In this document: positions 27,741 through 58,242 of the stretch, piece by piece
Numbering within the stretch: the stretch's first letter is position 1
How the letters are laid out: each line of letters opens with the position of its first letter
NCBI GenBank assembly: GCA_964584785.1
Contig: CAZPBY010000012.1
Span: forward strand, 56,590-120,589
DNA: 64,000 nt
DNA from: an uncultured Solibacteraceae bacterium
GTDB lineage: Bacteria; Acidobacteriota; Terriglobia; 20CM-2-55-15
Direction of reading: 5' to 3'
Made by a program: the position numbers and the translations under genes
The notes under the pieces: model-generated
What the model was told of the DNA's origin: nothing
Databases searched by the model: none
The model's input: only the letters and a program-made list of their open reading frames with translations

Positions 27741-27741
27741 A

Positions 27742-32235: not shown

Positions 32236-32257
32236 TCTGAAAAACCTCTAAGATCTG

Positions 32258-33983: not shown

Positions 33984-34012
33984 TTGACTTTTTTTCCTCT
34001 GATTGGCATGAT
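33984..34012 (+). promoter_or_regulatory. Sigma70-like promoter candidate upstream of giant gene 34087: TTGACT-N17-CATGAT. It is preceded by the tandem direct repeat agcgacaa x2 (33961-33978).
   Basis: Direct reading. The -35 hexamer is at 33984-33989 and the -10-like hexamer at 34007-34012, about 75 bp before the ATG. Confidence 0.3.
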
Positions 34013-34086
34013 GCCGCCGCCGCAGGGTCAGAACGACTCGCCATCCGAGCGGTTAAATCGAAATCTGAAGGTTCAAAGCAAACTGC

Positions 34087-37000: not shown

Positions 37001-40000
37001 TAACACTGCAATCGGGGCTTGTGGCAGCCACTGCTTCGACGGACACCGTTGCTCCCTCGTCCACGATAACTTCGCCTGCTACTGGGGCGGCCTTCAGCTT
37101 CGGTAGTACCTTGACGATAACCGGTACGGCCGCTGACACCGGTGGTGGCGTGGTCGGAACAGTGGAAGTATCCACGGACGGTGGTGTTACCTGGCGCCGA
37201 GCGACGGGCAGGCAGAGTTGGAGCTACACCTGGACAGCTTATACATCGGGATCCATCAACATCAAAAGCAGAGCCGCAGACGATAGCGGCAACCTGCAAG
37301 TCCCGGGCGCCGGCATCAACGTCACAGTGGCAGCACCATTATGCCCATCCACAACTGTATCGTGCTTCAGTCTTTGGAACAGCAGCGCGACTCCTACCGT
37401 TGCCTCTGCCAACGATGCCAGTTCGGCAGAGGTTGGCGTGAAATTCAAGTCCGATGTGAACGGATACGTAACCGCTGTTCGTTTTTACAAGGGCACTCAA
37501 AATACCGGCAACCACATCGTAAACCTCTGGACAAGCGCCGGTACGCTGATGGCAACCGCGCCGACCGTCAACGAAACCGCATCAGGCTGGCAACAGGCCA
37601 ACTTCGCCTCTCCCGTTGCGGTAACCGCCAATACGACCTACGTTGCTTCTTACTTCACGCCCACGGGTTTCTATTCTTATTCACGACCATACCTTACATC
37701 CGGCTTCGACAACGCGCCATTACATGCGCTCGCGGATGTAGCTTCGGGGGGTAACGGAGTTTATCGCTACGGCGTGGCGTCAGGCTTTCCGACCAGTGCC
37801 TATCAGGCATCCAATTTCTGGGTGGACGTTTTCTTCACTACGGCAACACCGTCGGACACGACGCCACCGGTCATCAGCGCGGTTCAGTCCGCCGGTGTAA
37901 CCTCAAACGGAGCGACCATTACATGGAGTACCAACGAGGCATCCGACAGCCAGGTCGAATACGGTACGACCACAAGCTACGGATTGAGCACGCCGGTCGA
38001 TTCCAATCTTGTTTTAAGCCATTCGCAGCAGCTTTCGGGTCTCACTGCTGGAACGTTGTATCACTACCGCGTGAAGAGCAAGGATGCGTCCGGCAATCTT
38101 GCGGTGTCTGCCGACTTCACTTTTTCGACTCCCGCAGGCTGTTCCTGCGACGTCAGTCTTTGGAATAACAGTCCTACCCCCGGCTCCAGCACGGATGGAA
38201 GGGCTCTCGAAATAGGTGTGAAGTTTAAGTCGGACGTGAACGGGTATATCAAAGCGATCAAGTTCTATAAAGGGCCACAGAACACCGGTTCCCATACGGC
38301 GAATCTATGGACCAGCACCGGTACTCAGTTAGGACAGGCTCTGTCCAGCGGAGAAACGGCAACGGGCTGGCAGACCGTTAATTTTTCTTCGCCGATCGCG
38401 ATCACCGCCAATACGGTTTACGTCGCGTCTTACTTCACAACGTCTGGATTTAATGCCGTCACCAACGGCTATTTTACTTCCGGCTTTGACAACGCACCAC
38501 TGCATGCCCTGTCGGACGCAAGTGCCGGAGGAAATGGACTCTACCGATTCGGCTCAACCTCGGGGTTCCCGAACAGCAGCTATCAGGCTTCGAACTACTG
38601 GGTGGATGTTGTGTTTGCCACGACAATCGCCACGGATACCACCCCACCGGTCATCAGCAGTGTCCAGGCGGGATCGATTACAACCACGACCGCCACGATT
38701 ACATGGACCACGGATGAGGCGTCGGACTCTCAGGTCGACTATGGGACCACAGCCAGCTATGGCTCGAGCACTCCGCTGAACTCATCTTCCGTTACGAGCC
38801 ATTCGCAGCAGATTACGGGTCTCACAGCAGGAACGTTGTATCACTACCGTGTCAGGAGCAGGGATGCAGCCGGCAATACAGCCAATTCGTCGGATTTGAC
38901 ATTCTCGACGACTGCCGATACCACAGCGCCGGTGATCAGCAGCGTCCAGGCCGGTTCGATCACAGCCACGTCGACGACGATTACCTGGAGTACAGACGAG
39001 GCGTCGGATTCTCAGGTCGAATATGGAACAACAATCAGCTACGGGTTGACGACGACGCTGAATTCCACTCTCGTCACCAGCCACTCCCAACCGCTTACCG
39101 GATTGGCTGGTGGTACGCTGTACCACTACCGCGTCAAGAGCAAGGATGCAGCCGGCAATCTGGCAGTCTCGGCAGACTTCACATTCACCACAATAGCGCT
39201 GGATACGACGCCGCCGGTTGTCAGCAATGTCCAGGCCGTCTCCATCACGACGACGTCGGCGACGGTCACGTGGAGCACCGATGAAGCATCCGACACTCAG
39301 GTGGATTACGGAACGACGATCAGTTACGGTTCGTCCACTACTCTGAATTCCTCGCTGGTCACCAGCCACTCGCAACCTCTTGCAAGTCTGACGAGCGGCA
39401 CGTTGTATCACTATCGAGTCCGAAGCAAGGATGCAGCCGGCAACCTGACAGTCTCGGCAGATTTCACTTTCACGACTACCGCAGCGGATGTCACTCCTCC
39501 GGTTATCAGCGGTGTTCAGGCGGGTTCGATTACCGCCGCGGCGGCTACGATCACCTGGAATACCGATGAAGCATCGGACAGTCAAGTGGATTACGGCACC
39601 ACGACCGGTTACGGGTCGTCAACAACGCTGAACGCCTCGCTTGTCACCAGTCATTCGCAGCAGCTCACGAGCCTGACCACCGGGACGTTGTACCACTATC
39701 GCGTCAGAAGCAAGGATGCCGCAGGCAACACGGCCGTGTCCGCCGATTTCACGTTCACGACGCTCGCATCCTGCAACTGCGACGTCAGTCTTTGGACCAC
39801 GAGCATCACTCCCGGAAATAGTACGGATTCTCGCGGCGTCGAAGTTGGGGTAAAGTTCAAGTCCGACGTTAACGGTTTCATCAAAGCGATCAGGTTCTAT
39901 AAGGCGAGTCAAAGTACCGGCCCGCACACGGTAAGTCTCTGGAGCAGCACCGGAGCCTTGTTAGGACAGGCACAAACGACGTCGGAAACAGCGTCGGGAT

Positions 40001-40266
40001 GGCAGACGGTGAACTTCGCTACTCCGATAGCGATAACGGCCAACACCGTCTACGTCGCGTCCACATTTTCGCCTTCGGGTTATAACGCCCAGACCGTCTT
40101 CTACTTCAACTCGGGCTTTGACAATCCTCCGCTGCATGCTCCGGATAACGGCTCGTCGGGAGGGAATGGTGTCTATAGGTTTGGGACGACAGCTGGTTTT
40201 CCGACGAGTAGCTATCAAGCATCCAACTACTGGGTGGACGTGATTTTTGCTACTTCGATTCCTTAG
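34087..40266 (+). CDS. 2059-aa secreted multidomain protein. Order of modules: signal peptide; ~3 ANP-type beta repeats; a large DmfA2-like (N,N-dimethylformamidase large-subunit-like) domain; an Ig-like domain; DUF4082 #1; Fn3; DUF4082 #2; 5 tandem Fn3; DUF4082 #3.
   Basis: Three copies of the DUF4082-like module (SLWN..TP.......EVGVKFKSDVNGY..A.RFYKG.QNTG.H..NLWTS.G...Y.AS..W.DV.F). Fn3 units of the form TTPPVIS.VQAGSIT...ATITW.TDEASDSQV.YGTT.SYG..T.LNS.LVTSHSQ.L.GL..GTLYHYRV.S.DAAGN. N-terminal repeats GITLANPSDQ... and GFAIANPNLV... are shared with gene 7216. Confidence 0.8.
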   Translation: MVGRRSCRIRLRTLISLSLLASSRQQAQTPTGISAEASRTVHESAAILTYTNPAGIVVSRAGVNPTEPLKSGLIFVDQTGPTTGITLANPSDQSASPTLILRDESGRETARRTLDLAAKQDSDVTISELFPGLPDGFRGTLAFESDQPLAGNGFRENINAYGESILSSVPAVDSASPLSAEPLVLPHIAAAGGTTDVVLVNTADQRVRGTIRLIGPSGKPLAMRLSDHIGSQFGYEIEAGGVYRGRFESLSAGAAGYAIVTPNDGDSTPTGMLIFQATSGRGLVSEAIVAVNERPTTSARVFVDNATARTGFAIANPNLVSTTVSFALLDANGTAVGKVTTELAPRGYSAVFANELFPQLVDGFEGLLDITAPLPVVPISLMVALNERNDPILTSLDIVDLDHPLESQSLVFPQTSFGLQAAARLIAIEASRDSSAGVILTLSQLDSTQLHSLSLSGSANQSGSQSGKKPVAFAPGNAPRLSVAATCDPLLQNPIMSEYQLTGNPQIEWDVTGAGDSSIQGFASEISVNKGETVFFKVSTPSTSYRLDIYRLGYYAGAGARKITTVNPSVVLPQNQPACLTDSTTGLIDCGNWAVSASWAVPLTAVSGVHIAKLVRQDGSTVSSHIVFIVRDDASTSDLLFQTSDTTWQAYNSYGGNSFYTGSPASRAFKISYNRPFNTRVTNTNSWLFGAEYPMIRFLEANGYNVTYFTDIDTDRRASLLLQHKVFLSVGHDEYWSAAQRTNVENARAAAINLAFFSGNAVFWKTRWENSIDGSNSPYKTLVCYKETHANAKIDPTPVWTGTWRDPRFSPPADGGRPSNSLKGTLFSVNGPRSDAIAVPSTYAPLRFWRNTTVASLSSGQTATFPVGTLGYEWDEAPDGPNAPPGLVTMSSTTLDVSPSYLLNYGSTFGSGIATHQLTLYKHSSGALVFSAGTVQWAWGLDNIHDGSAPAPDVRMQQATINLFADMRAQPLTLQSGLVAATASTDTVAPSSTITSPATGAAFSFGSTLTITGTAADTGGGVVGTVEVSTDGGVTWRRATGRQSWSYTWTAYTSGSINIKSRAADDSGNLQVPGAGINVTVAAPLCPSTTVSCFSLWNSSATPTVASANDASSAEVGVKFKSDVNGYVTAVRFYKGTQNTGNHIVNLWTSAGTLMATAPTVNETASGWQQANFASPVAVTANTTYVASYFTPTGFYSYSRPYLTSGFDNAPLHALADVASGGNGVYRYGVASGFPTSAYQASNFWVDVFFTTATPSDTTPPVISAVQSAGVTSNGATITWSTNEASDSQVEYGTTTSYGLSTPVDSNLVLSHSQQLSGLTAGTLYHYRVKSKDASGNLAVSADFTFSTPAGCSCDVSLWNNSPTPGSSTDGRALEIGVKFKSDVNGYIKAIKFYKGPQNTGSHTANLWTSTGTQLGQALSSGETATGWQTVNFSSPIAITANTVYVASYFTTSGFNAVTNGYFTSGFDNAPLHALSDASAGGNGLYRFGSTSGFPNSSYQASNYWVDVVFATTIATDTTPPVISSVQAGSITTTTATITWTTDEASDSQVDYGTTASYGSSTPLNSSSVTSHSQQITGLTAGTLYHYRVRSRDAAGNTANSSDLTFSTTADTTAPVISSVQAGSITATSTTITWSTDEASDSQVEYGTTISYGLTTTLNSTLVTSHSQPLTGLAGGTLYHYRVKSKDAAGNLAVSADFTFTTIALDTTPPVVSNVQAVSITTTSATVTWSTDEASDTQVDYGTTISYGSSTTLNSSLVTSHSQPLASLTSGTLYHYRVRSKDAAGNLTVSADFTFTTTAADVTPPVISGVQAGSITAAAATITWNTDEASDSQVDYGTTTGYGSSTTLNASLVTSHSQQLTSLTTGTLYHYRVRSKDAAGNTAVSADFTFTTLASCNCDVSLWTTSITPGNSTDSRGVEVGVKFKSDVNGFIKAIRFYKASQSTGPHTVSLWSSTGALLGQAQTTSETASGWQTVNFATPIAITANTVYVASTFSPSGYNAQTVFYFNSGFDNPPLHAPDNGSSGGNGVYRFGTTAGFPTSSYQASNYWVDVIFATSIP
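38641..39770 (+). repeat. Four tandem near-identical ~285-bp coding repeats (Fn3 units 2-5 of the six) inside gene 34087.
   Basis: Fn3 copies 2-5 begin at about 38641, 38921, 39211 and 39496. The more diverged copy 1 begins at about 37861, and DUF4082 copy 2 lies between Fn3 copies 1 and 2. Protein identity between tandem copies is high. The antisense ORF 38782-39585 is a repeat artefact. Confidence 0.8.
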
Positions 40267-40288
40267 TTCCGGCGAGGTGGGGCGAGGT

Positions 40289-40954
40289 TTAAACGAGGTG
40301 TTTTGTAATCCAGTCTTCGGCGCCGTTGCTTGATGCCAGCTTGAGAACCGGATTCACGTCATAGAGCCGTTCGATTCGCTCGACCGTGAGATCGCTGGTA
40401 TCGATCACCATTGCGCAAGCCGTCGCTTTCAACTCGCGCGACTGACCTACTGAACCGGGATTGAGCAGGTAGGGCTTCTTGTCGGTCCGGCAAACGACGC
40501 GATGCGTTTGCCCGAAGAGGATCACGTCGTAGTCGAATTCACTCAGCCGGTCGAGAGCCGCAGAACCGGGATACATGTAATCCTCAATCGTACGCCACGG
40601 ACTGCCATGAACCATGAGGAAAGTCCGACCGTCGAGTCGTCCGGACCAGGTCAGAGGGAGTTCGGATAGCCATCGGCGGTTCTCGTCTGAAATGCTCTGT
40701 CGCGCAAACTCGACACCGAATCGGACACTCGCCGGAACATCGTCCGGACAGCCGTAGAGCAGAAAGTAGTCATGATTGCCGAGGATAGACCGCACGCCCA
40801 TGGCACGAACGTAGTCCATCACCTCATTTACCTGGCAATAGTATCCGGTGAGGTCACCGGCGCAAAGAATCCGATCGGCCGATTCGAGGACATCGCTCAA
40901 CGCCTTCAATGCTTCGAAATTTGCATGAAGATCACTGATCAGGGCGATGCGCAT
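40289..40954 (-). CDS. Metallophosphoesterase (calcineurin-like phosphoesterase, YfcE-like).
   Basis: MRIALISDLHANFEALKAL...ILCAGDLTGY...LGNHDYF carries the DxH...GD...GNHD/E motifs. Confidence 0.85.
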   Translation of the reverse strand: MRIALISDLHANFEALKALSDVLESADRILCAGDLTGYYCQVNEVMDYVRAMGVRSILGNHDYFLLYGCPDDVPASVRFGVEFARQSISDENRRWLSELPLTWSGRLDGRTFLMVHGSPWRTIEDYMYPGSAALDRLSEFDYDVILFGQTHRVVCRTDKKPYLLNPGSVGQSRELKATACAMVIDTSDLTVERIERLYDVNPVLKLASSNGAEDWITKHLV

Positions 40955-40958
40955 AGGC

Positions 40959-42095
40959 TTAATGCAGGATGTGAGTCAATGGAGTATCGACGGTGAGAGG
41001 GCTGACATCTCCGGGAACTTCGGGCATCGCTTCCTTTCGCATCCCGTAATCTTCAACTTCCAGTTCGTACAATTTTGGATTATCGAGCACGCTGGATTTG
41101 GACAATGTCGCGTAAGCGTCCGTATCGACGTACACTTCGTTCCAATAACGCAGCATGATTCCTTTTGTAATCCGAGGAAGGTCGACCGCCGGCTCACCGA
41201 GCGCGTAGTGGCGAATCGCGGCCTCGACTTCATTGAAGCCCAGCCGGGCTCGCACTGGAGTCGTTCCCGAGAATCGGACGTTCACCTCGAAGCAGACCGG
41301 ACGCCCACCGGACGTCCTGAGCTGGATGTTGCAGGGCCCCATGGGCCTCAAGGCCTGAGCAATCCGGACAGCCTCTTCACACACGTCGTCAAAACGTCCG
41401 ACTTCCGCGCGGGCCGTGGTTCCGCTGAGAAGATCGCGGCGCATGGCAATCGCTCCGCGGACTTTGCCTTCGCTGTCGCTGAAGCATCCGACGGTGTACT
41501 CGTGATCGGCGTCACCAAGTAACTCCTGAACGATATAGTCATTCCGGCTGCCGATGAATGCGAGATCGGCATCGTTGCGCAGTTCGAAAATGCCCCGCCC
41601 CCCTTTCCCGTTCAGCGGCTTTGCGAACAAAGGGTATCCGCACTCGGCGACAAGCGCCGCCAGCCTCTTCGTATCGGTTGAAGACGCGTAGCGGGGAAAG
41701 TTAAGGCCCTGCTGCTCCAGCCACTGGCAAGTGAGCAGCTTGTCACCACCAATACGAATAGCTTCCGGGCTACTCACGATGCAGATCGCGCCCGTCCGCT
41801 CTCGAATGAATTGAACGTGTTCCGACAGGACCGCAAGCACCGGTTCAACACCGGACAGGATGACGCCCACGCCCTCAGCCACCGATGTCTCGATCAGCCA
41901 GGGCAGGAAATCCGGACTTGCCGCCGGCGGACATACGTACGAACGATCGACGGTATACAAACCCATCGCTAGCGGACTAACACATGCACCCACAACTCTG
42001 CAATCGAGGTTGCTCAAAGCAAGAGCCTTCAGAATGCCTTGGCTGACAGAGCCTCCCACTCCAAGTACAAGCACTGTCAGCTTCTCGTTTTTCAT
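40959..42095 (-). CDS. ATP-grasp domain protein (carboxylate-amine ligase-like).
   Basis: 378 aa. N-terminal pre-ATP-grasp Rossmann region (LTVLVLGVGGSVSQGILKAL). Central ATP-grasp region (YPLFAKPLNGKGGRGIF). Overlaps the start of the downstream metallophosphoesterase closely. Confidence 0.7.
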   Translation of the reverse strand: MKNEKLTVLVLGVGGSVSQGILKALALSNLDCRVVGACVSPLAMGLYTVDRSYVCPPAASPDFLPWLIETSVAEGVGVILSGVEPVLAVLSEHVQFIRERTGAICIVSSPEAIRIGGDKLLTCQWLEQQGLNFPRYASSTDTKRLAALVAECGYPLFAKPLNGKGGRGIFELRNDADLAFIGSRNDYIVQELLGDADHEYTVGCFSDSEGKVRGAIAMRRDLLSGTTARAEVGRFDDVCEEAVRIAQALRPMGPCNIQLRTSGGRPVCFEVNVRFSGTTPVRARLGFNEVEAAIRHYALGEPAVDLPRITKGIMLRYWNEVYVDTDAYATLSKSSVLDNPKLYELEVEDYGMRKEAMPEVPGDVSPLTVDTPLTHILH

Positions 42096-42166
42096 ATCAA
42101 AACCCCGCGTAGACGCCCCCTTTTAACATGTGGCCCGCCGTTCGACCAGAGATGTTTTTACGGCGC

Positions 42167-45100
42167 TTACTGTATGAATTGGAATGCGCCGATATCCCAG
42201 GCGGATCCTATAGGCCGCTTCTTTCCAGCGAAATCCACATCGAACCCGGTCGCATGTAAATCAATTCCCCGCTGGACCGCCGGGTTGTTCGACTTCAGGT
42301 GGAAATTACCGTTCGCCGGATCGACAAACAAATCTGCGTTCGACGGCAGCGATTGAGAATGAGGTCCTTCCTGCCAACCGTTTGAGATGAGGGTTCCATT
42401 CACGAGAATGTTGTAATCACTATCGACTACGGTCGAATCAAACGCAGCGAGTTCAAACGTGCCGAACGGCACGTTAGCAAGGAGATTGTTCCGCACAATG
42501 ATTTTCTTCCCATGAGCAACGCCAATGCCGACACCGTTCAGGGTGTTGTTGAATATTTGGACATCGAGGTTAAAGGTGTACGGATACCTGTCCGATTCAT
42601 CGCCGGCGACGGCGATGCCTGAAGCAGAGTTGGAAATCACGTTGTTACGAATGACAGTTCCGTTCTGGTTCAACAGCGCGCTGAGGGCATAGCCGTTCCG
42701 GTCGAGAATCTGGTTGTTTTCGATGAGGTAGTCCGTCCTGTCGACCGGAACGTTGTCCAATCCCGGAATGACACCGAGCGAAACGATACCGCTCGAAAAC
42801 GCGTTTCCGCCCTTGAGCACGTTGCCGCGGATCGTGACGTTTCTCAATCCCGCTTTCAAATCGATCTGGTCGGTTTCTCCACCATTCGAGTCGGACTGAT
42901 CCAAAAGATTGTTCTCGATCAGAATGTCGCTATGCGTATTGCCCCACAGGAGGCAGCCACCGTCACCCAGGTAATTTCCGGAAATGTATATCGCCTCGCC
43001 ATAGCCTCGTTCGACGACGTTGTTTCGCAGCGTAATGTCCTCGAGATTGCCAAACACGGCGGCGCAGTTGACGTTAACCGCAGCGTGAAAAATCACGCTG
43101 GGTCCCGTGTTCAACAGATCGTGAATGTGCATGTACTCAACGACCGTCGAGTTTCCCGCAAACGCGACGCGCCCCGTGGTTCCGCTTACATCGAATCCGC
43201 GAATGGTGGTGTAGTGATTCGGGAAATCGGTGAACGGCGACTGAACGCCAATTGAAAGTCCGCCGGTAGTAATGCTGACGTTGAACTTGTTCGTGCCGGA
43301 GTAATCCACCCAGGATGGCGCGTCATCGTTCGTGTTGTACTTCGACATGCCATCGAGCGTGAGCCGGTTTGTTCCAATATCGGTGCGCCAGAGGTTGATT
43401 TCCTTGTTTTCGATTTCCGGCGTGTCGGATGTTGCTTGACGCGCGCTGTAGTACACGATCACGTTGTTTGTGGCCAGAGCAGCATTGACCGCAGTCCACT
43501 GCTCGTTCGGCCGATCGGTCGCAAACCTCTTCCATGGATGTGCAGCGCTTCCATCGCTGATCAAGCCGGTATAAGTCGGATCGACATAGAAAGCGGTTTG
43601 ACTCTCGGCCGACAGTACGGCGACGGTTGTGCTCGCCGTGTCGGTGACGATGCCGTCGCTGACAGTGAGATCAAAGCCGTACACTCCTGCCATCGTGAAC
43701 GAAGCTGTCGTGGTGAGTGCCCATGGCGCCGAAAACACCGCCTGCGCCGGCCCGCTTGTCTGCTTCCACTCCACGGTGTAAGACACATCGTCGACGCCGC
43801 TCACATGCCCGAACAGACTCACGTCGCGCACAGGAAGAGCGATGGTTTTCAGCGGTCCTGTATCCACGGTGATCGAAACAGGGTTGACCGTGACCTGGAC
43901 GTCGCTGCTTCCTGAAAAAGGCCCATGTGCCGCCGTCAACCGAAGCTTGTAGTGTCCGGGTGCTGAAAAGTTCGCAGTTGCGGTGAGGGAAGCCGGGTCG
44001 CTGAACGTCACCTCGCCCGGGCCACTTACTTTGCTCCACGTTGTGCCGAAGCCTGCGCTGTGCGGAACCTCTTCCGCCGATCCCGCCATCGTGGCCGCGG
44101 CGGGCAACCTGACGGTCTGGTCCGGTCCGGCGTTCACAGTGATCGTCGGCGACGCCGTTACGGTGAGATCGCTGATGGCGGTATACGGACCTTCCGTCCC
44201 TGTGAAACGCAGGACGTAGGTACCCGCTTCGGAAAACTCGGCGGTACTTTCCGGGAACGCCGAATTGCCGAACGACACGTCGCCCGGGCCGCTCACCTTG
44301 CTCCACAACACGGTGAACGATTCGCTGGCCGGAAATACGGTCGCCGAACCTGCAAGCGAAATCAGTCCCGGCAGCTTGACGTCTTGATTGGGTCCTGCGA
44401 CCACCGTGACGGTAGGTGTCGCGATCACCGTCAGATCGCCGGCCGCCAGCAGAGGAGGATCGTTCGCGGTCAAGCGCAGCACGTAAGTCCCCCACGCGGA
44501 AAATGTCGTTGTGGAAGATGGAGAAGCAGCGTTGTCGAACGTAACGTCGCCCGGGCCGCTTATCTTGGTCCACAGTATCGTACCGTTGGCGCTCAGGCCT
44601 TCGACGGTTCCGGGCAGAGTCAGCGACGCCGGCAATTTGACGTTCTGAGTGGGACCCGCATTCACGGTAAGCGCGGGGGCAACGGTTATCGTGATGTCGC
44701 TCGACGCACTAAACGGTCCGTCTGTCGACGTCAGCCGCAAGACATACGCTCCCCAGATAGAGAAGGCAGCGGTCGAATTGACAGATGACGCATTACTGAA
44801 CGTGACGTCGCCCGGGCCGCTGACTTTGCTCCACGATGTCGCGAACGCAGCGCTTGCGGGCGTTGAATTCGCCGTGCCGGCAAGCGTCGCCGTAGCCGGA
44901 AGCTTGATGTTCTGATTTGCCCCGGCATTCGCCGTGATCGTCGGTGTTGTCGTTATCGTCACATCGCTGGTTTCGCTGAAGGGACCGTCGCTGGACGTCA
45001 ATCGGAGGACATAGGTGCCCCACGCCGAGAAAGTCGCTGTCGTATTCAAAGAGGCTGCATTCGCAAATGTGACGTCGCCCGGGCCGCTCACTTTGCTCCA

Positions 45101-48100
45101 GGCTGTCGCGAATGCACCGCTCGCCGGAGTCGAAGTGCCGGATCCAGACAGTGTGGCCTCCGCGGGCAGCTTGACGTTCTGATTCGCCCCGGCGTTCGCC
45201 GTGATCGTCGGAGTAGTCGTCACTGTCAAGTCGCTTGTCTCGCTGTATGGAGCATCGGTCGCCGTCAGCCGCAACACGTAAGTGCCCCACGCCGAAAAAC
45301 TCGCGGTCGTGCTTAAGGACGACGCGTTGCTGAACGTGACGCTCCCGGGACCACTCACTTTGCTCCAGGAAGTTGCAAACGTCGCCGTCGCCGGAGTCTC
45401 CGTCGCTGCGCCGGCCAGGGATGCCTCGGCGGGCAGCTTTACATTCTGATTGGCCCCAGCTGTAGCCGTAATGGTCGGGCTGGCGGTGATCGTCACGTCA
45501 CTGCTGGCGTTGTGAGGTCCGTCCGAGGCGGTCAGCCGCAGCACATAAGTTCCCCACGCCGAAAAACTGGCTGTTGTGGCGGGCGACGTCGCATCAGCGA
45601 AGGTCACCTCGCCCGGTCCACTGACTTTGCTCCACGCTTTCGTGAACCCAGCGGAGGCAGGAGTTTCACTGGCACTACCGGAAAGCGTAGCCGTCGCAGG
45701 CAGCTTAACGTTCTGATTGGCTCCCGCCGAAGCCGTGATCGTCGGCGTGGCGGTAATCGTCAGTTCGCTGATTGCACTGAACGGCCCGTCTGTTGCGGTC
45801 AGGCGCAAGACGTACGTGCCCCAGGCTGTGAAATCCGCGGTAGTGGCGACGGAATTTGGATTGGCGAACGTGACGTTTCCTGGTCCGCTCACTTTGCTCC
45901 ACACAGTCGTGAAGCCCGTACTGGCTGGGGTTTCGGCCGCAGCAGCTGCAAGCGTGCCAGAGGCCGGCAGTTTCACATTTTGATTAGGGCCGGCGGTGGC
46001 CGTGATCGTTGGCGTCGTGGTAATCGTGACATCGCTGATTTCGCTGAACGGGCCATCCGTCGCTGTTAACCGCAGGACATACGTTCCCCATGCAGAAAAA
46101 CTCGCGGTTGTGCTCGAGGACGCGGCGTTAGCGAATGTGACATCGCCAGGACCGCTCACTTTGCTCCACGCAGTCGCGAATCCGGCGGCCGTCGGAGTTT
46201 CAGTCGCAACTCCGGCGAGCGCTGCCGCAGCGGGGAGTTTGACATCCTGATTGACGCCCGCGGAGACAGCAATCGTGGGTGTGGTGATGATCGTCACCTC
46301 GCTGGTGGCGCTGAAAGGGGTGTCCGTCGCCGTCAGCCTCAAGACATATGTTCCCCATGCGGAAAAACTCGCCGTCGTGTTCAAAGACGCAGCGTTAGCG
46401 AACAAGACGTCGCCGGGACCGCTGACCTTGCTCCACGCCGTCGCGAATCCAGCCCCCATCGGCGTTTCACTCGCACTTCCCGCGAGTGCTGCCGCAGCAG
46501 GCAGCTTCACATTCTGATTAGGTCCGGCCGCTGCAGTGATCGTAGGTGTTGTGATGATCGTAACGTCACTCGCCGCATTGAACGGTCCGTCCGTCGCAGT
46601 CAAACGCAGGACGTAGGTTCCCCACGCCGAAAAAGTCGCTGTTGTGACTGGAGACGCCGCATTTGCGAAAGCGACATCGCCTGGACCGCTCAGCTTGCTC
46701 CATGCGGTGGCGAATCCCGCGCTCAACGGGATCTCACTGGCATTGCCCGACAGCGTAGCGGCCGCAGGTAGCTTCACATTCTGATTGGCTCCGGCGCTGA
46801 CCGTAATGGTCGGTGCTGCGGTTACTGTGAGTTCGCTGATCACACTGAAGGGACCATCCGTCGCGGTTAACCTCAAGACATATGTCCCCGACGCTGAGAA
46901 ATCCGCCGTCGTGCCCGGAGAGGCTGGATTGGCGAACACCACGTTCCCAGGGCCGCTTACCTTGCTCCATAACGTTGTGAACCCGGCGCCGCGCGGTGTC
47001 TCACCGGCAATTCCGGCAAGTACGGCCGACGCAGGCAGCATGATGTTTTGATTGGCACCGGCGGTGGCGGTGATCGTGGGTGTGGTGACGATTGTCACGT
47101 CACTCGACACACCGAACGGTCCGTCCGCCGCGGTCAAACGCAGCACGTAGGTGCCCCACGCCGAAAAAGTCGCTGTTGTGACTGGAGACGCCCCATTTGC
47201 GAAAGCGACATCGCCGGGACCGCTGACCTTGCTCCACGCGGTGGCGAATCCCGCGCTCAACGGGATCTCACCCGCATTGCCGGACAGCGTCGCGGCCACA
47301 GGGAGCTTCACATTCTGATTGGCACCGGCGCTTACGGTAATGGTCGGTGTTGCGGTTACTGTGAGTTCGCTGATCACACTGAAGGGACCATCCGTCGCGG
47401 TTAACCTCAAGACATATGTCCCCGACGCTGAGAAATCCGCCGTCGTGCCCGGAGAGGCTGGATTGGCGAACACCACGTTCCCAGGGCCGCTTACCTTGCT
47501 CCACAACGTTGTGAATCCGGGGCCGAGCGGCGTCTCACCGGCAATTCCGGCAAGTACGGCCGACGCTGGCAGCATGATGTTTTGATTGGCACCGGCGGTT
47601 GCGGTGATCGTGGGAGTGGTGACGATTGTCACCTCACTCGCCGCATTGAACGGTCCGTCCATCGCAGTCAAACGCAGGACGTAGGTTCCCCACGCCGAAA
47701 AAGTCACCGTTGTACCTGGAGAGGCAGCATTTGCGAAAGCGACATCGCCCGGCCCGCTCACCTTGCTCCACGCAGTTGCGAACCCCGGACTCATCGGCGT
47801 TTCACTGGCATTGCCCGACAGCGCAGCGGCCAAAGGGAGCTTCACATTCTGATTGGCTCCGGCGCTGACCGTAATGGTCGGTGTTGTGGTTACTGTCACT
47901 TCGCTGATCGCAATGAAGGGACCATCTGTCGCGGTTAACCGCAAGGCATATGTTCCCCATGCCGAGAAATCGGCCGTCGTGTTCGGCGAGGCTGGATTAG
48001 CGAATAGGACATTCCCGGGGCCGCTTACCTTGCTCCATAACGTTGTGAATCCGGAGCCGAGTGGTGTCTCACTCGCAATTCCGGCAAGTACGGCCGACGC

Positions 48101-50113
48101 AGGCAGCATGACGTTTTGATTGGCACCGGCGGTTGCGGTGATCGTGGGTGTGGTGACGATTGTCACGTCACTCGACACACTGAACGGTCCGTCCGTCGCG
48201 GTCAATCGCAGGACGTAAGTTCCCCACGCCGAAAATGTCGCAGTTGTGCCTGGAGACGCCGCATTGTTGAAAGCGACATCGCCCGGACCGCTGACTTTTG
48301 TCCACAATACGGCAAACCCGGCGCCCGCAGGAGTCTCGGTCGCTGTTCCGGTGAGCGTAGCGGCGGCAGGTAGTTTCACGTTTTGATCAGAGCCGGCATT
48401 TACAGTGATCGTCGGTGTCGCCATGACAACGACGTCGCTGCTCTCGGAATACGGCCCATCGCTGGCAGTCAGTCGTAGAACGTACTTGCCCGATGCCGTG
48501 AAACTGGCGGTGGTGCTTGTGGCCGACGGCGTCCCGAAAATGACGTCGCCGGGTCCACTAACCTTACTCCACAATACCGCGATTCCGGCACCTGCCGGAG
48601 TCTCGCTGACCGTTCCCGAAAGGTTGACTCCGGCCGGCAATTTCACATTCTGGTCCTGACCTGCATTGACTGTAATGGTGGGGGCGGCCGTTATAGTGGT
48701 GTCGCTACTTGTACTGTGAGGGCCATCTGTTGCCGTGAGGCGCAACACGTACGTGCCCCACGCCGAGAACGTGGCAGTCGTTGCCGCAGACGATGGATTT
48801 GCGAATGCCACATCACCGGGCCCGCTGACCTTACTCCACGACAAGGAGATCCCCGGATTCGCCGGGATCTCCGTTGCGGCTCCTGCAAGCGGAGCCGCGG
48901 CAGGCAATTTGACGAACTGGTTGGCTCCGGCAACGGAAGTGATCGTAGGTATGGTCGTTACGGTCGTTTCACTATTGCTGCTGTAAGTCCCGTCACTGGC
49001 CGTCAGGCGCAGGACATATGTTCCCCACGCCGAGAAAGTCGCTGTCGTAACCGCTGCCGAGGGGTTGGCGAACGACACTTCGCCGGGTCCGCTTACTTTA
49101 CTCCACGAGGCCGAGAGGTTCGGGCTTGATGGTATCTCATTAATCTCACCGGTCAGTGTCGCGGAGGAAGGCAGCTTGATCTGCTGGTCTGACCCGGCGC
49201 TCGCAACAACGGTCGGCGACACGATGACGCCCACATCGCTGCTCGCGTTGAAGGGGCCGTCGATAGCGTTGAGTCGCAGTACGTAAGTACCGACAGCCGA
49301 AAAGTCCACGTTCGTTGCAGGTGATGCCGGGTTAGAAAAGGTAGCTATTCCCGGGCCACTAACCTTCTCCCAGAACACGGTAAAACCTGGACTCACCGGA
49401 AACTCACTCGCAGTTCCGGAAATCGTCAGGCTGCCGGGCAGCCTGAGGTTCTGGAGTGGCCCGGCACTCACATTGAAAGTGGGGGCAGCTGTGATGGTTA
49501 CGTCGCTGCTGCCGGCTTGCACATTATTCGACACCGACAATCGCAGAACGTATATACCGGCTAAAGAGAACGTAGCAGAGGTGTCGAAGGATGAAGGATT
49601 GCTAAACGCAACAAGACCAGGTCCACTGACCTGAGACCAGGAAGGTACGAATTTTCCCCCGGCATTAGAGTCCGAGTAGGCGGTTCCGTGCAGACTGACG
49701 CCGCTTGGCAGGACGATAGCCTGGTTCGGTCCGGCACTGACCGTGATGGTAGGACGCATCACGAAGTTGAGCCGGTTGGATGTCAATGCACCCATCCGCA
49801 CATAGACAGGTCCTGTGACGCTGTCCGCAGGTACGGTTACTACCAGTTTGTTCGAGGCCGCGGAATTTACAGTGGCCTGTGCAGTGGTGTTGCCCTTCCC
49901 TGGAAACACCACCAGGTTCAGGGACGGCGTCGTCGAGAATCCGCTTCCCATGATCTCGACTTTGGAACCGATCTGCGCTTCCGACGGACTCAACTCCCAC
50001 AGTTGCAGGCCGGACTTCGCGGCTTGAGCAAATGCTCCTGCGGCGACGATGATGGCTATGGCTAACCATCTCGTCGCGAACCGCAACCAATTTTTTGAAT
50101 GACTTTGTGACAT
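42167..50113 (-). CDS. Giant (~2648 aa) secreted cell-surface protein built as IPT/TIG + about 22 tandem PKD/Ig-like domains + C-terminal right-handed parallel beta-helix domain (putative polysaccharide lyase or glycanase).
   Basis: Signal peptide MSQSHSKNWLRFATRWLAIAIIVAAGAFAQA. Start chosen at 50113 with GGGGAG upstream; the ORF track starts at 50227. About 22 units of ~89-95 aa of the form PTIT..AGANQNVKLPA...L.G.A.ETP...GF...WSKVSGPG.V.F.N..S...TA.FSAWGTYVLRLTATDGPFS..S.VT. C-terminal ~500 aa carry beta-helix repeats (NN.I.., G..V.G., and so on) and end in SAWDIGAFQF. Confidence 0.85.
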   Translation of the reverse strand: MSQSHSKNWLRFATRWLAIAIIVAAGAFAQAAKSGLQLWELSPSEAQIGSKVEIMGSGFSTTPSLNLVVFPGKGNTTAQATVNSAASNKLVVTVPADSVTGPVYVRMGALTSNRLNFVMRPTITVSAGPNQAIVLPSGVSLHGTAYSDSNAGGKFVPSWSQVSGPGLVAFSNPSSFDTSATFSLAGIYVLRLSVSNNVQAGSSDVTITAAPTFNVSAGPLQNLRLPGSLTISGTASEFPVSPGFTVFWEKVSGPGIATFSNPASPATNVDFSAVGTYVLRLNAIDGPFNASSDVGVIVSPTVVASAGSDQQIKLPSSATLTGEINEIPSSPNLSASWSKVSGPGEVSFANPSAAVTTATFSAWGTYVLRLTASDGTYSSNSETTVTTIPTITSVAGANQFVKLPAAAPLAGAATEIPANPGISLSWSKVSGPGDVAFANPSSAATTATFSAWGTYVLRLTATDGPHSTSSDTTITAAPTITVNAGQDQNVKLPAGVNLSGTVSETPAGAGIAVLWSKVSGPGDVIFGTPSATSTTASFTASGKYVLRLTASDGPYSESSDVVVMATPTITVNAGSDQNVKLPAAATLTGTATETPAGAGFAVLWTKVSGPGDVAFNNAASPGTTATFSAWGTYVLRLTATDGPFSVSSDVTIVTTPTITATAGANQNVMLPASAVLAGIASETPLGSGFTTLWSKVSGPGNVLFANPASPNTTADFSAWGTYALRLTATDGPFIAISEVTVTTTPTITVSAGANQNVKLPLAAALSGNASETPMSPGFATAWSKVSGPGDVAFANAASPGTTVTFSAWGTYVLRLTAMDGPFNAASEVTIVTTPTITATAGANQNIMLPASAVLAGIAGETPLGPGFTTLWSKVSGPGNVVFANPASPGTTADFSASGTYVLRLTATDGPFSVISELTVTATPTITVSAGANQNVKLPVAATLSGNAGEIPLSAGFATAWSKVSGPGDVAFANGASPVTTATFSAWGTYVLRLTAADGPFGVSSDVTIVTTPTITATAGANQNIMLPASAVLAGIAGETPRGAGFTTLWSKVSGPGNVVFANPASPGTTADFSASGTYVLRLTATDGPFSVISELTVTAAPTITVSAGANQNVKLPAAATLSGNASEIPLSAGFATAWSKLSGPGDVAFANAASPVTTATFSAWGTYVLRLTATDGPFNAASDVTIITTPTITAAAGPNQNVKLPAAAALAGSASETPMGAGFATAWSKVSGPGDVLFANAASLNTTASFSAWGTYVLRLTATDTPFSATSEVTIITTPTIAVSAGVNQDVKLPAAAALAGVATETPTAAGFATAWSKVSGPGDVTFANAASSSTTASFSAWGTYVLRLTATDGPFSEISDVTITTTPTITATAGPNQNVKLPASGTLAAAAAETPASTGFTTVWSKVSGPGNVTFANPNSVATTADFTAWGTYVLRLTATDGPFSAISELTITATPTITASAGANQNVKLPATATLSGSASETPASAGFTKAWSKVSGPGEVTFADATSPATTASFSAWGTYVLRLTASDGPHNASSDVTITASPTITATAGANQNVKLPAEASLAGAATETPATATFATSWSKVSGPGSVTFSNASSLSTTASFSAWGTYVLRLTATDAPYSETSDLTVTTTPTITANAGANQNVKLPAEATLSGSGTSTPASGAFATAWSKVSGPGDVTFANAASLNTTATFSAWGTYVLRLTSSDGPFSETSDVTITTTPTITANAGANQNIKLPATATLAGTANSTPASAAFATSWSKVSGPGDVTFSNASSVNSTAAFSIWGAYVLRLTSTDGPFSASSDITITVAPALTVNAGPTQNVKLPASLTLPGTVEGLSANGTILWTKISGPGDVTFDNAASPSSTTTFSAWGTYVLRLTANDPPLLAAGDLTVIATPTVTVVAGPNQDVKLPGLISLAGSATVFPASESFTVLWSKVSGPGDVSFGNSAFPESTAEFSEAGTYVLRFTGTEGPYTAISDLTVTASPTITVNAGPDQTVRLPAAATMAGSAEEVPHSAGFGTTWSKVSGPGEVTFSDPASLTATANFSAPGHYKLRLTAAHGPFSGSSDVQVTVNPVSITVDTGPLKTIALPVRDVSLFGHVSGVDDVSYTVEWKQTSGPAQAVFSAPWALTTTASFTMAGVYGFDLTVSDGIVTDTASTTVAVLSAESQTAFYVDPTYTGLISDGSAAHPWKRFATDRPNEQWTAVNAALATNNVIVYYSARQATSDTPEIENKEINLWRTDIGTNRLTLDGMSKYNTNDDAPSWVDYSGTNKFNVSITTGGLSIGVQSPFTDFPNHYTTIRGFDVSGTTGRVAFAGNSTVVEYMHIHDLLNTGPSVIFHAAVNVNCAAVFGNLEDITLRNNVVERGYGEAIYISGNYLGDGGCLLWGNTHSDILIENNLLDQSDSNGGETDQIDLKAGLRNVTIRGNVLKGGNAFSSGIVSLGVIPGLDNVPVDRTDYLIENNQILDRNGYALSALLNQNGTVIRNNVISNSASGIAVAGDESDRYPYTFNLDVQIFNNTLNGVGIGVAHGKKIIVRNNLLANVPFGTFELAAFDSTVVDSDYNILVNGTLISNGWQEGPHSQSLPSNADLFVDPANGNFHLKSNNPAVQRGIDLHATGFDVDFAGKKRPIGSAWDIGAFQFIQ
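43660..49730 (-). repeat. ~6 kb array of about 22 tandem coding repeats (period ~267-285 bp) inside giant gene 42167-50113. Within it, 46250-48120 consists of near-identical 534-bp higher-order (two-domain) repeats.
   Basis: Plus-strand artefact ORFs at 46785, 47319 and 47853 are near-identical and spaced 534 bp apart. Minus-strand artefact ORFs 46734-46970 and 47268-47504 are identical over their first 50 aa. The translated protein shows two near-identical 178-aa blocks. Confidence 0.85.
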
Positions 50114-50288
50114 GACACTAGCTCCCCAGTGTCCTGTCCTTGGCTCGTGTCGTGTGTGAGCTAAACTATCTTGCTTGCGCTCACTTACTCCACCTGCCGG
50201 CCATACTGCCGGCAAGATGGACCACATCGAAACTATTCGTACCCGAGGACGGACTATCTGTGCAGCCTATCGAATGAACGCGTCGTTT

Positions 50289-51875: not shown

Positions 51876-52748
51876 TCAGCCGAGAACCGCTCGGATCGCT
51901 CCCCACAAACCGCTCGCCTTGACGATGAGTTCGTGTCGATCAGCGGAGTCTGAAATGCAGATCCTGCGAAGCTTGTAGGCTGGCGTCGTTGCGGTGTTGA
52001 ATCCTCGGTCCAGCGTCAGAGCGCAACGGTATCCTGCCTTCTCCGCCAGCTCCACTTCGCGTTCGGAGTAATCACCGTTTGGATATGCGAGAGCGTAAAT
52101 CTCATGACCAAGCCTCGCCTGGAGGTCGAGTTTCGAGTTGGTGATCTCGGACTCGGCCCGAGCCGGCATGCATCGCGGCAGGATAGAGTGAAAAACCGTG
52201 TGCGACTGAAAGTCGGCCAACGTCTTCAGCTCTTCCACCTCGGCAAACGACAGCGCCTGCCTGTCATGGAATTCTTGTTGCTCCTCGAAACCTGTATCGC
52301 GAAGCGCCGCCCGGCGGTCCGCATCGGGAAGGGTTTTGAGCGACTGCACCACATCGGCAGCCGCGTCATGCTGGAACCAGAACCGTCGACGCGTATCGAT
52401 CACGCCGCTGCACAGGAAAATAGTCACCGGCACATTGTGCTTTTGAAGGACCGCTTTGAGGTCGTAATTACTCTGATGACCGTCATCGAGTGTAATAATC
52501 AGGGCTCTCTGAGGCAGCCGTAAACCGTGGGTTTCCCGGGCATCGACATATTGAGCGAGCGGAATGATGTTATAGAGCCGTTTCAGCAGGCCGAGGTGAG
52601 AATCCAGGACATCCGCCGCCGGCGCGTGATAAGCAAGAATCGTTACCTTGCTGCGCTGCAACACGGTGCGAATGAGGAATGGCAGCAGCGTCAGTCGCAG
52701 CGCCGCAAAAGCCAGCGCCCGCGACTCGGTACCGTTTACGCGACGCAT
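51876..52748 (-). CDS. Polysaccharide deacetylase (NodB-homology) family protein.
   Basis: ITLDDGHQSNYD (the TFDDG-type motif) and later H-containing motifs. 290 aa. Starts 1 nt after the flippase start, which is a tight junction. Confidence 0.7.
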   Translation of the reverse strand: MRRVNGTESRALAFAALRLTLLPFLIRTVLQRSKVTILAYHAPAADVLDSHLGLLKRLYNIIPLAQYVDARETHGLRLPQRALIITLDDGHQSNYDLKAVLQKHNVPVTIFLCSGVIDTRRRFWFQHDAAADVVQSLKTLPDADRRAALRDTGFEEQQEFHDRQALSFAEVEELKTLADFQSHTVFHSILPRCMPARAESEITNSKLDLQARLGHEIYALAYPNGDYSEREVELAEKAGYRCALTLDRGFNTATTPAYKLRRICISDSADRHELIVKASGLWGAIRAVLG

Positions 52749-56927: not shown

Positions 56928-56950
56928 GTTACGAAGCGGATGGTCCGCAG

Positions 56951-58240: not shown

Positions 58241-58242
58241 GG

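Follow-up and report, generated by a model that had tools for sequence, protein, structure and literature searches.

Two remotely related families of beta-helix proteins, putative EPS-processing enzymes, in a Wzx/Wzy-type exopolysaccharide locus of an uncultured Solibacteraceae bacterium

The window, by which we mean the whole 64,000-nucleotide stretch of DNA analysed here, contains a Wzx/Wzy-type exopolysaccharide (EPS) locus at 17465..64000, mostly on the (-) strand, as recognised with Pfam and NCBIfam profiles; the three genes discussed below do lie beside EPS genes, as the original prediction had it. The locus encodes a nucleotide-sugar dehydrogenase identified by TIGR03026, an AsnB-like amidotransferase, two DegT aminotransferases, a GT2 and three GT4 glycosyltransferases, Wzy_C and PMT_2 proteins, a MurJ-like flippase, two polysaccharide deacetylases, a sulfotransferase, a FemAB-like protein, an ATP-grasp protein, a hexapeptide transferase, PrsR and PrsK. 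Because of the nucleotide-sugar dehydrogenase, uronic acids, the substrate class needed by a lyase, should be available. PrsR (TIGR02915) reaches 606.2 bits (cutoff 502.6), and PrsK (TIGR02916), whose gene is cut by the window end, 296.9 bits against 300, so that the pair by which an XrtA/PEP-CTERM-associated EPS locus is recognised is present. The profiles for the system-specific amidotransferase and FemAB equivalogs, TIGR03108 (564 against 817) and TIGR03019 (137 against 260), stay below their cutoffs, and no exosortase family was matched in the scan of window ORFs with 150 aa or more.

The ORFs of all three genes are present in the translation of the window. The longest reading of the first, a giant, is 42167..50227 on the (-) strand, and translation probably begins at the ATG at 50116, behind a GGGGAG Shine-Dalgarno sequence; the gene at 42167..50116 encodes 2649 aa. 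Its product consists of a signal peptide, an IPT/TIG-like domain, 23 PKD (K319L-like) repeats of 89 aa each and a beta-helix of what we call family A. The stalk is visible as 23 SGP[GA] repeats with a period of 89 aa, corresponding to a tandem period of 267 nt in the DNA, and Pfam matches the giant with K319L-like_PKD and, weakly, TIG. The signal peptide and IPT/TIG-like module (49793..50116, (-) strand) are recognised from this weak match and from BLASTP alignment with the N-terminus of the second protein (E 6e-23, 42% identity over 135 aa). At the other end, the conserved family A unit occupies 42170..43876 on the (-) strand (profile A1, positions 20-580, 737.9 bits) and is composed of the divergent last PKD domain (43613-43876) followed by the right-handed beta-helix (42170-43612). 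Thus the giant ORF stands as it had been described, but the conserved unit includes a PKD domain and reaches about 216 nt further upstream than the feature first delimited, the helix proper beginning at about 43612. The MurJ-like flippase gene has the same orientation and lies 170 nt upstream of the giant. At the gene junctions no promoter-like or terminator-like sites were found, the few consensus matches falling within coding sequence, and the giant apparently shares a transcript with EPS genes. A scan for sigma-54 sites (TGGCAC-N5-TTGC, at most 2 mismatches) gave 69 matches against 65 expected, which is no enrichment, and a candidate site at 20398-20412, upstream of the second gene, is within chance.

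This second gene, on the (+) strand, has an ORF at 20791..23937, and a start at 20806 is preferred because the N-terminus of the 20806 protein then aligns with that of the giant. The protein encoded at 20806..23937 (812.6 bits with profile A2) carries a signal peptide, a TIG-like domain, four PKD domains, an FN3-like domain and a beta-helix of family B; the latter two make up its B unit at about 22315-23934 on the (+) strand. The third gene, 24131..25843 on the (+) strand, encodes a free-standing family B protein of 570 aa, with a hydrophobic N-terminal leader, an FN3-like domain (about aa 36-140) and a beta-helix (about aa 150-570), and is characterised by its AlphaFold2 (AF2) model, Foldseek searches and 55 homologues. 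All three proteins have Sec-type N-terminal leaders. They had been proposed to be tethered to the cell surface, but we found no C-terminal anchor or sorting signal on any of them, the chains stopping directly after the cap domain, and a regular expression for PEP-CTERM tails matched none of the window ORFs.

A shared C-terminal motif, [SA]W.Y.G..PDIG.[FY][EQ][FY], had been taken to unite the three proteins. The full pattern fits only the 24131 protein: the 20806 protein departs from it by a Cys in place of the first [FY], and the part Y.G..P is missing from the giant. What does hold is a looser core, DIG.[FYC][EQ][FYW]: in the six-frame translation it occurs only at the very C-terminal ends of these three ORFs. 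In the giant this cap, ending ...GKKRPIGSAWDIGAFQF, lies at 42176..42307 on the (-) strand and matches the NCBIfam choice-of-anchor Q domain (NF041518) with 30.3 bits against a cutoff of 25, over residues 532-575 of a 577-aa fragment; the 24131 protein reaches 19.1 bits, below the cutoff, and the 20806 protein gives no match. Choice-of-anchor domains are named for standing before various C-terminal sorting signals. The giant resembles this family in its above-cutoff C-terminal cap, but the window proteins, unlike the usual pattern, have no sorting signal behind the domain, and family B stays below cutoff. The terminal DIGxFxF core is a generic beta-helix C-terminal cap and not a family signature.

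The beta-helix domains do not constitute a single module, as had been supposed; they belong to two remotely related, uncharacterised families. The B units of the 20806 and 24131 proteins share 59% identity over 540 aa, whereas the C-terminus of the giant finds the other two proteins by BLASTP with E = 0.13 and 0.005. When family profiles are aligned with hhalign, the relation becomes clear (probability 99%, E 1.4e-18, 17% identity, 318 columns), and since homology is visible by such profile-profile comparison only, we distinguish family A, a PKD domain plus helix as in the giant, and family B, an FN3 domain plus helix. We collected 122 homologues of family A, mostly of about 600 aa and composed of PKD and helix, and 55 of family B, mostly of 555-610 aa with FN3-like domain and helix as the typical architecture; the metagenome scan for family B used alignment A3, a closer set than A2. 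Most relatives have a PKD stalk of no or one domain, and others have 4, 9 or 23. Profile A1 gave 3788 representative matches at E<=1e-30, which we rejected as a measure of the size of family A, because the number is inflated by giants consisting of PKD domains only: the helix is present in just 29 of the 132 top matches that were re-examined. Members of both families are widely distributed among uncultured soil Acidobacteriota, Verrucomicrobiota and lineages related to them.

As to the fold, the original prediction of a parallel beta-helix holds for all three proteins. AlphaFold2 models of the C-terminal 497 aa of the giant (pLDDT 93.3) and of the 24131 protein (pLDDT 94.3) are right-handed beta-helices with regular three-strand periodicity, both matched by Foldseek with probability 1.0 to many beta-helix structures, enzymes included, and the 20806 protein is taken to have the same fold because of its identity to the 24131 protein. 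An Asn ladder (N340, N372 and N392) is invariant and fits a stacked-coil solenoid. The nearest solved structures, with TM scores around 0.5 for the best, are almost all active on glycans in this comparison, which had been proposed, with beta-helix polysaccharide lyases (PL) and glycoside hydrolases (GH): GH136 LnbX, PL9 Pel9A, PL6 lyases, AlgE4 and AlgE6, GH110, GH87 and RbmB. GH136 enzymes have the top TM scores for family A (0.52-0.55), and Pel9A (1ru4), the best Foldseek match of the 24131 protein (E 1.3e-7), is also among the top matches for family A. It is to be noted that TM scores of about 0.35-0.55 together with identities of 9-15% are low, and the matches therefore reflect the generic fold. 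Among solved structures, the best sequence relative of family A is PDB 9rx2_A, a 'Parallel beta-helix repeat protein' (E 1e-14); it was set aside as a guide since its residues at the aligned acidic and Lys positions differ, and we found no paper describing it. Searches with phmmer of single sequences against PDB sequences gave nothing relevant, and a BFVD fold search for viral relatives gave only generic tailspike-like matches (TM up to 0.51).

In family A (numbering of the 497-aa query), E175, E222, Y225 and K269 are invariant in 95/95 sequences, D267 is found in 94/95 and D264 in 92/95. These six, encoded within 42854..43138 on the (-) strand, fall on consecutive coils according to the strand pattern of the model, and we infer from their conservation that they are candidate active-site residues. 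In family B (numbering of the 24131 protein), the candidates are D333, D348, D359, D360, E363, R372, R405 and K422, encoded within 25127..25396 on the (+) strand; D333, D359, D360, R372 and K422 are invariant in 54/54 sequences, including members at 24-27% identity, D348, E363 and R405 are found in 52/54, and a further residue, K365, in 39/54. Taking both sets together (95 A and 54 B sequences), invariant polar and charged residues persist in members of several phyla and at identities as low as 24-33%. In the hhalign alignment, GYKDDGxESK of family B stands against GGEGDGIDLK of family A, with a D-x2-[DE]-x-K strand in common. Charged positions that stay fixed from one phylum to the next are indirect support for an enzymatic nature of the proteins.

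Could they instead be non-catalytic matrix proteins or adhesins, whose helix binds EPS or another surface and whose PKD stalk is a spacer, like PfbA of Streptococcus pneumoniae or CdrA of Pseudomonas aeruginosa, a beta-helix adhesin? The long PKD/TIG stalks and the signal peptides would suit such a function, PfbA structures (3zpp, 4mr0) are among the fold matches of family A, and no curated enzyme family is matched above cutoff. Against this, acidic, basic and Tyr residues would hardly stay invariant in very divergent members of a mere binding protein, typical members have only about 600 aa and at most one stalk domain, and most of the nearest structures are enzymes. Moreover, in one homologue from another genome (P0191) a family A domain (41% identity, E 2e-95) shares the chain with a CE4 deacetylase domain and one that is heparinase II/III-like. 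We thus consider an adhesin function unlikely.

The genomic surroundings of relatives bear on whether such enzymes would act on the EPS of their own locus. Family B lies directly upstream of the orthologous flippase gene in five loci (L032, L033, L034, L035 and L040), whose EPS genes are 45-75% identical to those of the window. Family A is found within EPS loci in seven further cases (L004, L020, L026, L027, L001, L002 and the P0004 contig); on the P0004 contig it adjoins the exosortase gene epsH. Related loci contain EpsH and PEP-CTERM genes, unlike the window. A and B are neighbours in L001 and L002, and once only they were found fused into one protein of 1325 aa (L031/P0180). A small ORF of about 165-182 aa that seemed to stand ahead of family B genes in several loci was considered and rejected, since its copies are homologous neither to each other nor to anything in the window, and the one in L002 is only the N-terminal piece of a B gene broken by a frameshift. 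In another 13 family A loci, for the most part of other phyla (Armatimonadota, Planctomycetota, Latescibacterota, Ignavibacteria and others), the neighbours show no enrichment of glycosyltransferase or EPS genes, and sulfatases and other beta-helix proteins are encoded nearby; the contexts of P0061 and P0191 are also non-EPS. The predicted association of the helix modules with EPS genes holds for family B in orthologous loci and for close relatives in family A. More distant family A members lie elsewhere, and of the family A loci from other phyla that we looked at, more than half do not belong to an EPS locus.

These 13 loci, as well as the multi-enzyme protein P0191, could be read as a sign that the proteins forage on or compete against foreign polysaccharides of plants, fungi or other bacteria, and that their position in an EPS locus is coincidental. 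Coincidence would hardly keep B beside the flippase gene in at least five orthologous loci, nor place A and B in EPS loci of several phyla or make the giant apparently co-transcribed with EPS genes, and we regard foraging as an improbable function here. GH136 LnbX and GH110 alpha-1,3-galactosidases resemble family A in fold and in profile, respectively (identity 12-13%; GH110 matches the central and C-terminal coils in a profile-to-sequence search with E 2.8e-6), and are gut glycan-foraging hydrolases without link to an EPS locus, unlike the window proteins.

To which enzymes, then, do the two families come closest? No curated enzyme family is matched by the window proteins above cutoff, and no membership in a characterised CAZy-type family could be demonstrated. 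The Pfam profile Beta_helix (PF13229; gathering cutoff 25.9), which many homologues pass, gives 24.7 (23.7 for the 577-aa fragment), 21.4 and 17.1 bits on the window proteins. Chondroitinas_B reaches 19.2 bits against 24 on the 24131 protein, on the N-terminal cap only (profile positions 2-74), a cap in which family B resembles PL6 lyases and chondroitinase B; its cutoff is passed by one distant homologue only (P0162, 26.9 bits). GH28 polygalacturonases carry the motifs NTD, GDD, GHG and RIK on successive coils, and none of the four (0/4) occurs in the helix regions. In PL9 pectate lyases (Pel9A), Asp residues of two consecutive coils form the Ca-1 site and a Lys of the coil after them is the catalytic base; these residues, D202, D226, D230 and K271, are spaced by 24, 4 and 41 residues (PMC6627557). 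In family B, D333, D359, E363 and R405 are spaced by 26, 4 and 42, which resembles PL9 in spacing and makes the Asp/Glu cluster, together with D360, a candidate Ca site. The position of the PL9 base (+42) is occupied by Arg (R405) instead of Lys, and K422 is one coil further; identities to PL9 and PL6 enzymes are 10-15% with TM scores of 0.34-0.55. Many family B homologues have a precomputed match to Pel9A-like_beta_helix (PF22842), which is absent from our local Pfam scan results, and the family B profile run over PDB sequences did not retrieve 1ru4.

Polymer-modifying enzymes that do not depolymerise, such as the uronic acid C5-epimerases AlgG and AlgE, are also to be thought of, since epimerases and lyases have a common fold and mechanism, including the first catalytic step (PMC4444821). 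AlgE4, AlgE6 and AlgG are among the fold and profile matches, AlgG and AlgE4 act on uronic-acid polymers of the kind of sugar that the locus makes, and AlgG is encoded in a biosynthesis cluster. The DPHD catalytic motif conserved in AlgG/AlgE mannuronan C5-epimerases (PMC4444821) is, however, absent from all three beta-helix domains, as is DPH[DE] in general, so that membership in this family, one of those first considered, has to be given up, and the epimerase matches do not rank above those to lyases or hydrolases. Furthermore, alginate is a synthase-dependent polymer, in contrast to the Wzx/Wzy product of the window. To our knowledge, epimerisation at the polymer level is known for synthase-dependent alginate and not for Wzx/Wzy pathways, and we judge such a modifying function to be rather remote.

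We thus return to cleavage. That families A and B are Sec-exported beta-helix enzymes that cut the EPS of the surrounding PrsK/PrsR-regulated Wzx/Wzy locus is the reading we favour, and we give it about an even chance; glycanases from uncharacterised families that process EPS are plausible. The original prediction of an enzyme family is in this sense strengthened by the invariant charged residues and by the retention of B beside the flippase gene, while the enzymes may be lyases or hydrolases, GH136 and GH110 being the best fold and profile matches for A. As for catalysis, substrate, chemistry and cellular location, we infer the following. The favoured chemistry would be metal-assisted beta-elimination at uronic-acid residues, with hydrolysis as the alternative. 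The acidic cluster (E222, D264 and D267 in A; D333, D359, D360 and E363 in B) would hold Ca2+, and a basic residue (K269 in A; R405, K422 or K365 in B) would take the C5 proton. In two of the proteins the putative enzyme would sit at the far end of a stalk, of 23 PKD domains in the giant and of four in the 20806 protein, both stalks coming after a common signal-peptide and TIG module. Cleavage of the EPS may then control how long the chains are and how the polymer is released or remodelled.

A known counterpart would be RbmB of Vibrio cholerae, a polysaccharide lyase with beta-helix fold (PDB 9ozl) whose gene belongs to the biofilm-matrix cluster. In its proposed mechanism the base is a Lys, K227, which a Glu from the following coil activates with assistance by Ca2+, and its substrate is a uronic acid with an amide-linked amino acid (PMC12993940). 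The window has in common with it a secreted right-handed beta-helix among matrix-polysaccharide genes, in the case of RbmB those of the polymer that it cleaves, and the decoration genes of the window locus for ATP-grasp, FemAB-like and AsnB-like proteins are comparable to the amide decoration of the RbmB substrate. On the other hand, sequence similarity is not detectable and the folds match weakly (E 4e-3, TMt 0.44); RbmB has no PKD, FN3 or TIG stalk, belongs to another locus type, and is one enzyme, against two families here. A far-reaching version of our reading, in which A and B would be two new lyase/glycosidase families that have to act together on a single acidobacterial EPS with heavy decoration (sulfated, amidated and aminoacylated), with the length of the stalk as a molecular ruler for the distance of the cut and the thickness of the slime, seems to us a long shot.

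Polysaccharide loci that encode their own glycanase are a well-established principle, as with AlgL for alginate and PslG for Psl, and the conceptual gain is in this respect modest. If the domains cleave the polymer of their own locus, they would represent one or two new carbohydrate-active enzyme families, and the PrsK/PrsR (PEP-CTERM-associated) EPS pathway, of which little is understood and on which soil aggregation and floc formation depend, would gain a processing step. A matrix trimming that is organised in space is hinted at by the stalk of 23 domains and by the naturally occurring A-B fusion. Enzymes of this kind may also become tools to dissect or disperse the matrices concerned.

Three genes in the window encode proteins that end in beta-helix domains, and the original prediction treated these ends as one shared C-terminal module. 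The open reading frame (ORF) corresponding to the largest of them, here called the giant, spans 42167..50227 on the minus strand. An ATG at 50116 has the Shine-Dalgarno sequence GGGGAG 8 nt ahead of it, and the N-termini of the giant and of the protein from the second gene align; thus, 50116 is taken as the likely real start, and the giant has 2649 aa. The second gene (ORF 20791..23937, plus strand) probably starts at 20806, by which it is named, and the third, 24131 (24131..25843, plus strand), encodes 570 aa. The giant consists of a Sec-type leader, MSQSHSKNWLRFATRWLAIAIIVAAGAFAQAA, a weak IPT/TIG domain, a stalk of 23 K319L-type PKD repeats with an exact period of 89 aa (267 nt), and a C-terminal domain of ~480 aa. 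Since DNA identity among the repeats is only 69-75%, assembly collapse as the origin of the array is ruled out. The 20806 protein is ordered as leader, TIG, four PKD, FN3-like and C-terminal domains, and its leader and IPT/TIG module (20806-21150, plus strand) is homologous to that of the giant (49793-50116, minus strand; 42% identity, E 6e-23). The free paralogue 24131 is without this module; a hydrophobic leader and an FN3-like domain precede the same C-terminal domain as in 20806. The giant and the 20806 protein have the leader/TIG module and PKD stalks in common but bear different beta-helix families at their tips, and their layout suggests one display scaffold on which the heads can be swapped. 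Directly past the 20806 stop and before 24131, a GC-rich hairpin, GGAGGAGCC-TG-GCTCCTCC, occupies 23955-23990 (plus strand); on that strand it has no clear T-tract behind it, and it may be a terminator between the two genes.

Is there really one module? For 20806 and 24131 the idea stands: the C-terminal 540 aa of the former are 59% identical to the latter protein, and the two are true paralogues. It does not stand for the giant, whose C-terminus gave only short patchy BLASTP matches to the other two (E = 0.13 and 0.005). Database searches with the two types returned disjoint homologue sets: family A, that of the giant, with 122 proteins, mostly of ~600 aa with a leader, one PKD and the helix, and family B, that of 20806 and 24131, with 55 proteins, mostly of 555-610 aa with a leader, FN3 and the helix. 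Many family B proteins carry the precomputed Pfam annotation 'Pel9A-like_beta_helix' (PF22842), which a local Pfam-A scan never returned, even at E<=10. Comparison of the two profiles by hhalign (probability 99.1%, E 1.4e-18, 17% identity over 318 columns) pairs the strand GGEGDGIDLK of A with GYKDDGIESK of B, and likewise the C-terminal caps, and shows remote homology between the two families. The unit conserved across family A takes in the last, divergent PKD, and the feature first delimited at 42167-43660 is therefore 42170-43876.

The predicted beta-helix fold is borne out. AlphaFold2 models built with family alignments are confident for both A (pLDDT 93.3, pTM 0.93) and B (pLDDT 94.3, pTM 0.91) and have the regular three-strand repeat expected of a right-handed beta-helix; B has in addition an FN3-like sandwich at its N-terminus. 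In Foldseek searches of the PDB, the leading matches of A include GH136 lacto-N-biosidases (TM 0.52-0.55), Pel9A, PL6 alginate lyases, AlgE4/AlgE6 epimerases, phage tailspikes, the adhesin PfbA, GH110, GH87 and RbmB; B matches Pel9A (E 1.3e-7), PL6 chondroitinase B and alginate lyases, and GH87. As all these matches have 8-15% identity and TM <=0.55, they establish the fold, not the family. A viral structure search gave generic tailspike-like matches only. Single-sequence searches of PDB sequences found nothing relevant for A or B. With profiles, B matched PL6 enzymes at their N-terminal caps and nothing else, and A reached GH110 (E 3e-6) and 9rx2_A, an uncharacterised 717-aa 'parallel beta-helix repeat protein' (E 1e-14). 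The latter match covers central and C-terminal coils and is the nearest solved relative of family A by sequence; it is absent among the top 50 Foldseek matches, and we found no paper that mentions the structure.

A lack of catalytic acidic or basic residues had been named as a finding that would weaken the enzymatic interpretation, and the conservation seen does not refute that interpretation. In family A (numbered on the 497-aa C-terminus of the giant), E175, E222, Y225 and K269 are invariant in 95/95 sequences, and D267 (94/95), D264 (92/95) and H243 (87/95) nearly so, in a set reaching down to 32% identity and covering Acidobacteriota, Armatimonadota, Planctomycetota, Verrucomicrobiota, Rokubacteria, Geotalea and even archaeal MAGs. 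In family B (numbered on 24131), D333, D359, D360, R372 and K422 are found in 54/54 sequences, including members at 24-27% identity, and D348, E363 and R405 in 52/54. By the strand pattern of the models, the conserved residues of both families occupy one strand position on consecutive coils, an arrangement which would resemble the active sites of beta-helix lyases. The spacing of D333/D359/E363/R405 in B (26, 4, 42) mirrors that of the Ca-site aspartates and catalytic base of PL9, D202/D226/D230/K271 (24, 4, 41; PMC6627557), although the base is Lys in PL9 and Arg (R405) stands at that position in B; this is only suggestive of a PL9-type site. Neither the DPHD motif of AlgG/AlgE epimerases nor the GH28 motif set is present in the three proteins. 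A glycan-active role of family A receives independent support from an Armatimonadota protein, P0191 (1541 aa, L045:8001-12626), in which a CE4 polysaccharide deacetylase, DUF4962 and a heparinase II/III-like domain are fused to a family A domain (41% identity over 495 aa, E 2e-95), and whose gene sits outside any EPS locus.

Two further features had been proposed, a terminal motif and tethering to the cell surface. The regular expression as written matches 24131 only, but a looser core, DIG.[FYC][EQ][FYW], ends exactly these three ORFs in six-frame translation. This region caps the helix at its C-terminal end and corresponds to NCBIfam NF041518 'choice-of-anchor Q' (giant 30.3 bits, cutoff 25; 24131 19.1 bits); the motif is therefore real, but it is generic to beta-helix proteins and does not mark a new family. 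The cap is not followed by a sorting signal in any of the three proteins, and no window ORF has a PEP-CTERM tail; surface tethering is thus unproven.

Adjacency to EPS genes, in turn, is confirmed by gene annotation: a Wzx/Wzy-type locus extends from 17465 to the window end. It includes a nucleotide-sugar dehydrogenase (uronic acid supply), two DegT aminotransferases, a hexapeptide acyltransferase, one GT2, three GT4, Wzy_C, PMT_2, a MurJ-like flippase, two polysaccharide deacetylases, the PEP-CTERM-box regulator PrsR (606 bits, cutoff 502.6) and the kinase PrsK. Because an ATP-grasp ligase (40959-42095), a sulfotransferase (54881-55900), a FemAB-like aminoacyl transferase (55860-56927) and an AsnB-like amidotransferase (25857-27740), all on the minus strand, are also present, the polymer is predicted to be acidic and to be sulfated, amidated or aminoacylated. 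The giant and the flippase gene share a strand, the giant beginning 170 nt downstream; no promoter- or terminator-like sites were found where it adjoins its neighbours, and the few consensus matches all lie within coding sequence. On the opposite strand within the locus, a 2059-aa ORF (34087-40266, plus strand) has an N,N-dimethylformamidase-beta-like C-terminal domain (DMFA2_C, E 1e-99), three DUF4082, about five FN3/PurAcPhosph_N-like and one Big_7 domain. A 303-aa HAF-repeat protein (19057-19968, plus strand; TIGR02913, 35.3 bits, cutoff 22.65) has no PEP-CTERM tail; HAF repeats are usually found on PEP-CTERM proteins. Upstream of the locus, two large plus-strand ORFs (7216-10212, 998 aa; 10458-11789, 443 aa) have no significant match in Pfam or NCBIfam.

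The strongest evidence for a link to the EPS locus is comparative. B lies directly upstream of the orthologous flippase in five other loci (L032-L035 and L040), where surrounding genes are 45-75% identical to their window counterparts. In a Terriglobia MAG (L004, DASUFH010000127.1), an A gene adjoins MurJ-like flippase and GT4 genes; its product P0181 (4997-11473, 2111 aa, 9 PKD detected) is the only other protein seen with many PKD domains and a C-terminal family A helix, and stalk length is therefore variable (1, 9 or 23 PKD domains). In a Verrucomicrobiia MAG (L026), the orthologous locus contains two A genes in tandem; other A genes stand beside GT genes (L027 and L020), and another between a GT4 gene and asnB, near the exosortase gene epsH. 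A and B are neighbours in L001 and L002, amid FemAB, PEP-CTERM, ATP-grasp and GT2 genes, and in a single instance they are fused: P0180 (L031:408-4382, plus strand, JACXTT010006208.1; 1325 aa) is ordered as leader, PKD, A helix, two PKD, FN3 and B helix, its A part being without the usual C-terminal DIGAYE cap. The link is not universal for family A. At 13 other A loci, mostly from other phyla, the 97 neighbour ORFs are not enriched in glycosyltransferases and include sulfatases and further beta-helix proteins, and two further A contexts are likewise non-EPS; among the contexts examined, EPS loci account for ~8/22 of A and at least 7/13 of B.

That an EPS or matrix cluster encodes its own beta-helix glycanase or epimerase is an established concept, with RbmB and AlgG as examples; AlgL, PslG and PelA are further cases of EPS clusters encoding their own processing enzymes. 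Neither family A nor family B has a member that has been characterised or a close relative of solved structure. In the literature we found no description of the recurrent A-B pairing, of the conserved flippase-side position in PrsK/PrsR-type loci, or of the extreme 23-PKD stalk. As to chemistry, hydrolysis is a real alternative, for which the GH136 and GH110 matches speak. Ca2+-assisted beta-elimination is favoured on four grounds: an acidic cluster accompanied by a Lys or Arg that is conserved, PL9 and PL6 enzymes as neighbours in fold, the uronic-acid pathway in the locus and the RbmB precedent; still, that the proteins are specifically lyases is a tentative assignment, and that they are EPS-active enzymes acting on their cognate polymer is a better one, for which we see about an even chance. 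They would then be secreted glycanases of beta-helix fold whose role is to process the heavily decorated, uronic-acid-containing EPS of their own locus. It is probable that A and B differ in bond specificity and act jointly, and the stalks may keep the enzyme at a distance from the site at which the N-terminal module is retained.
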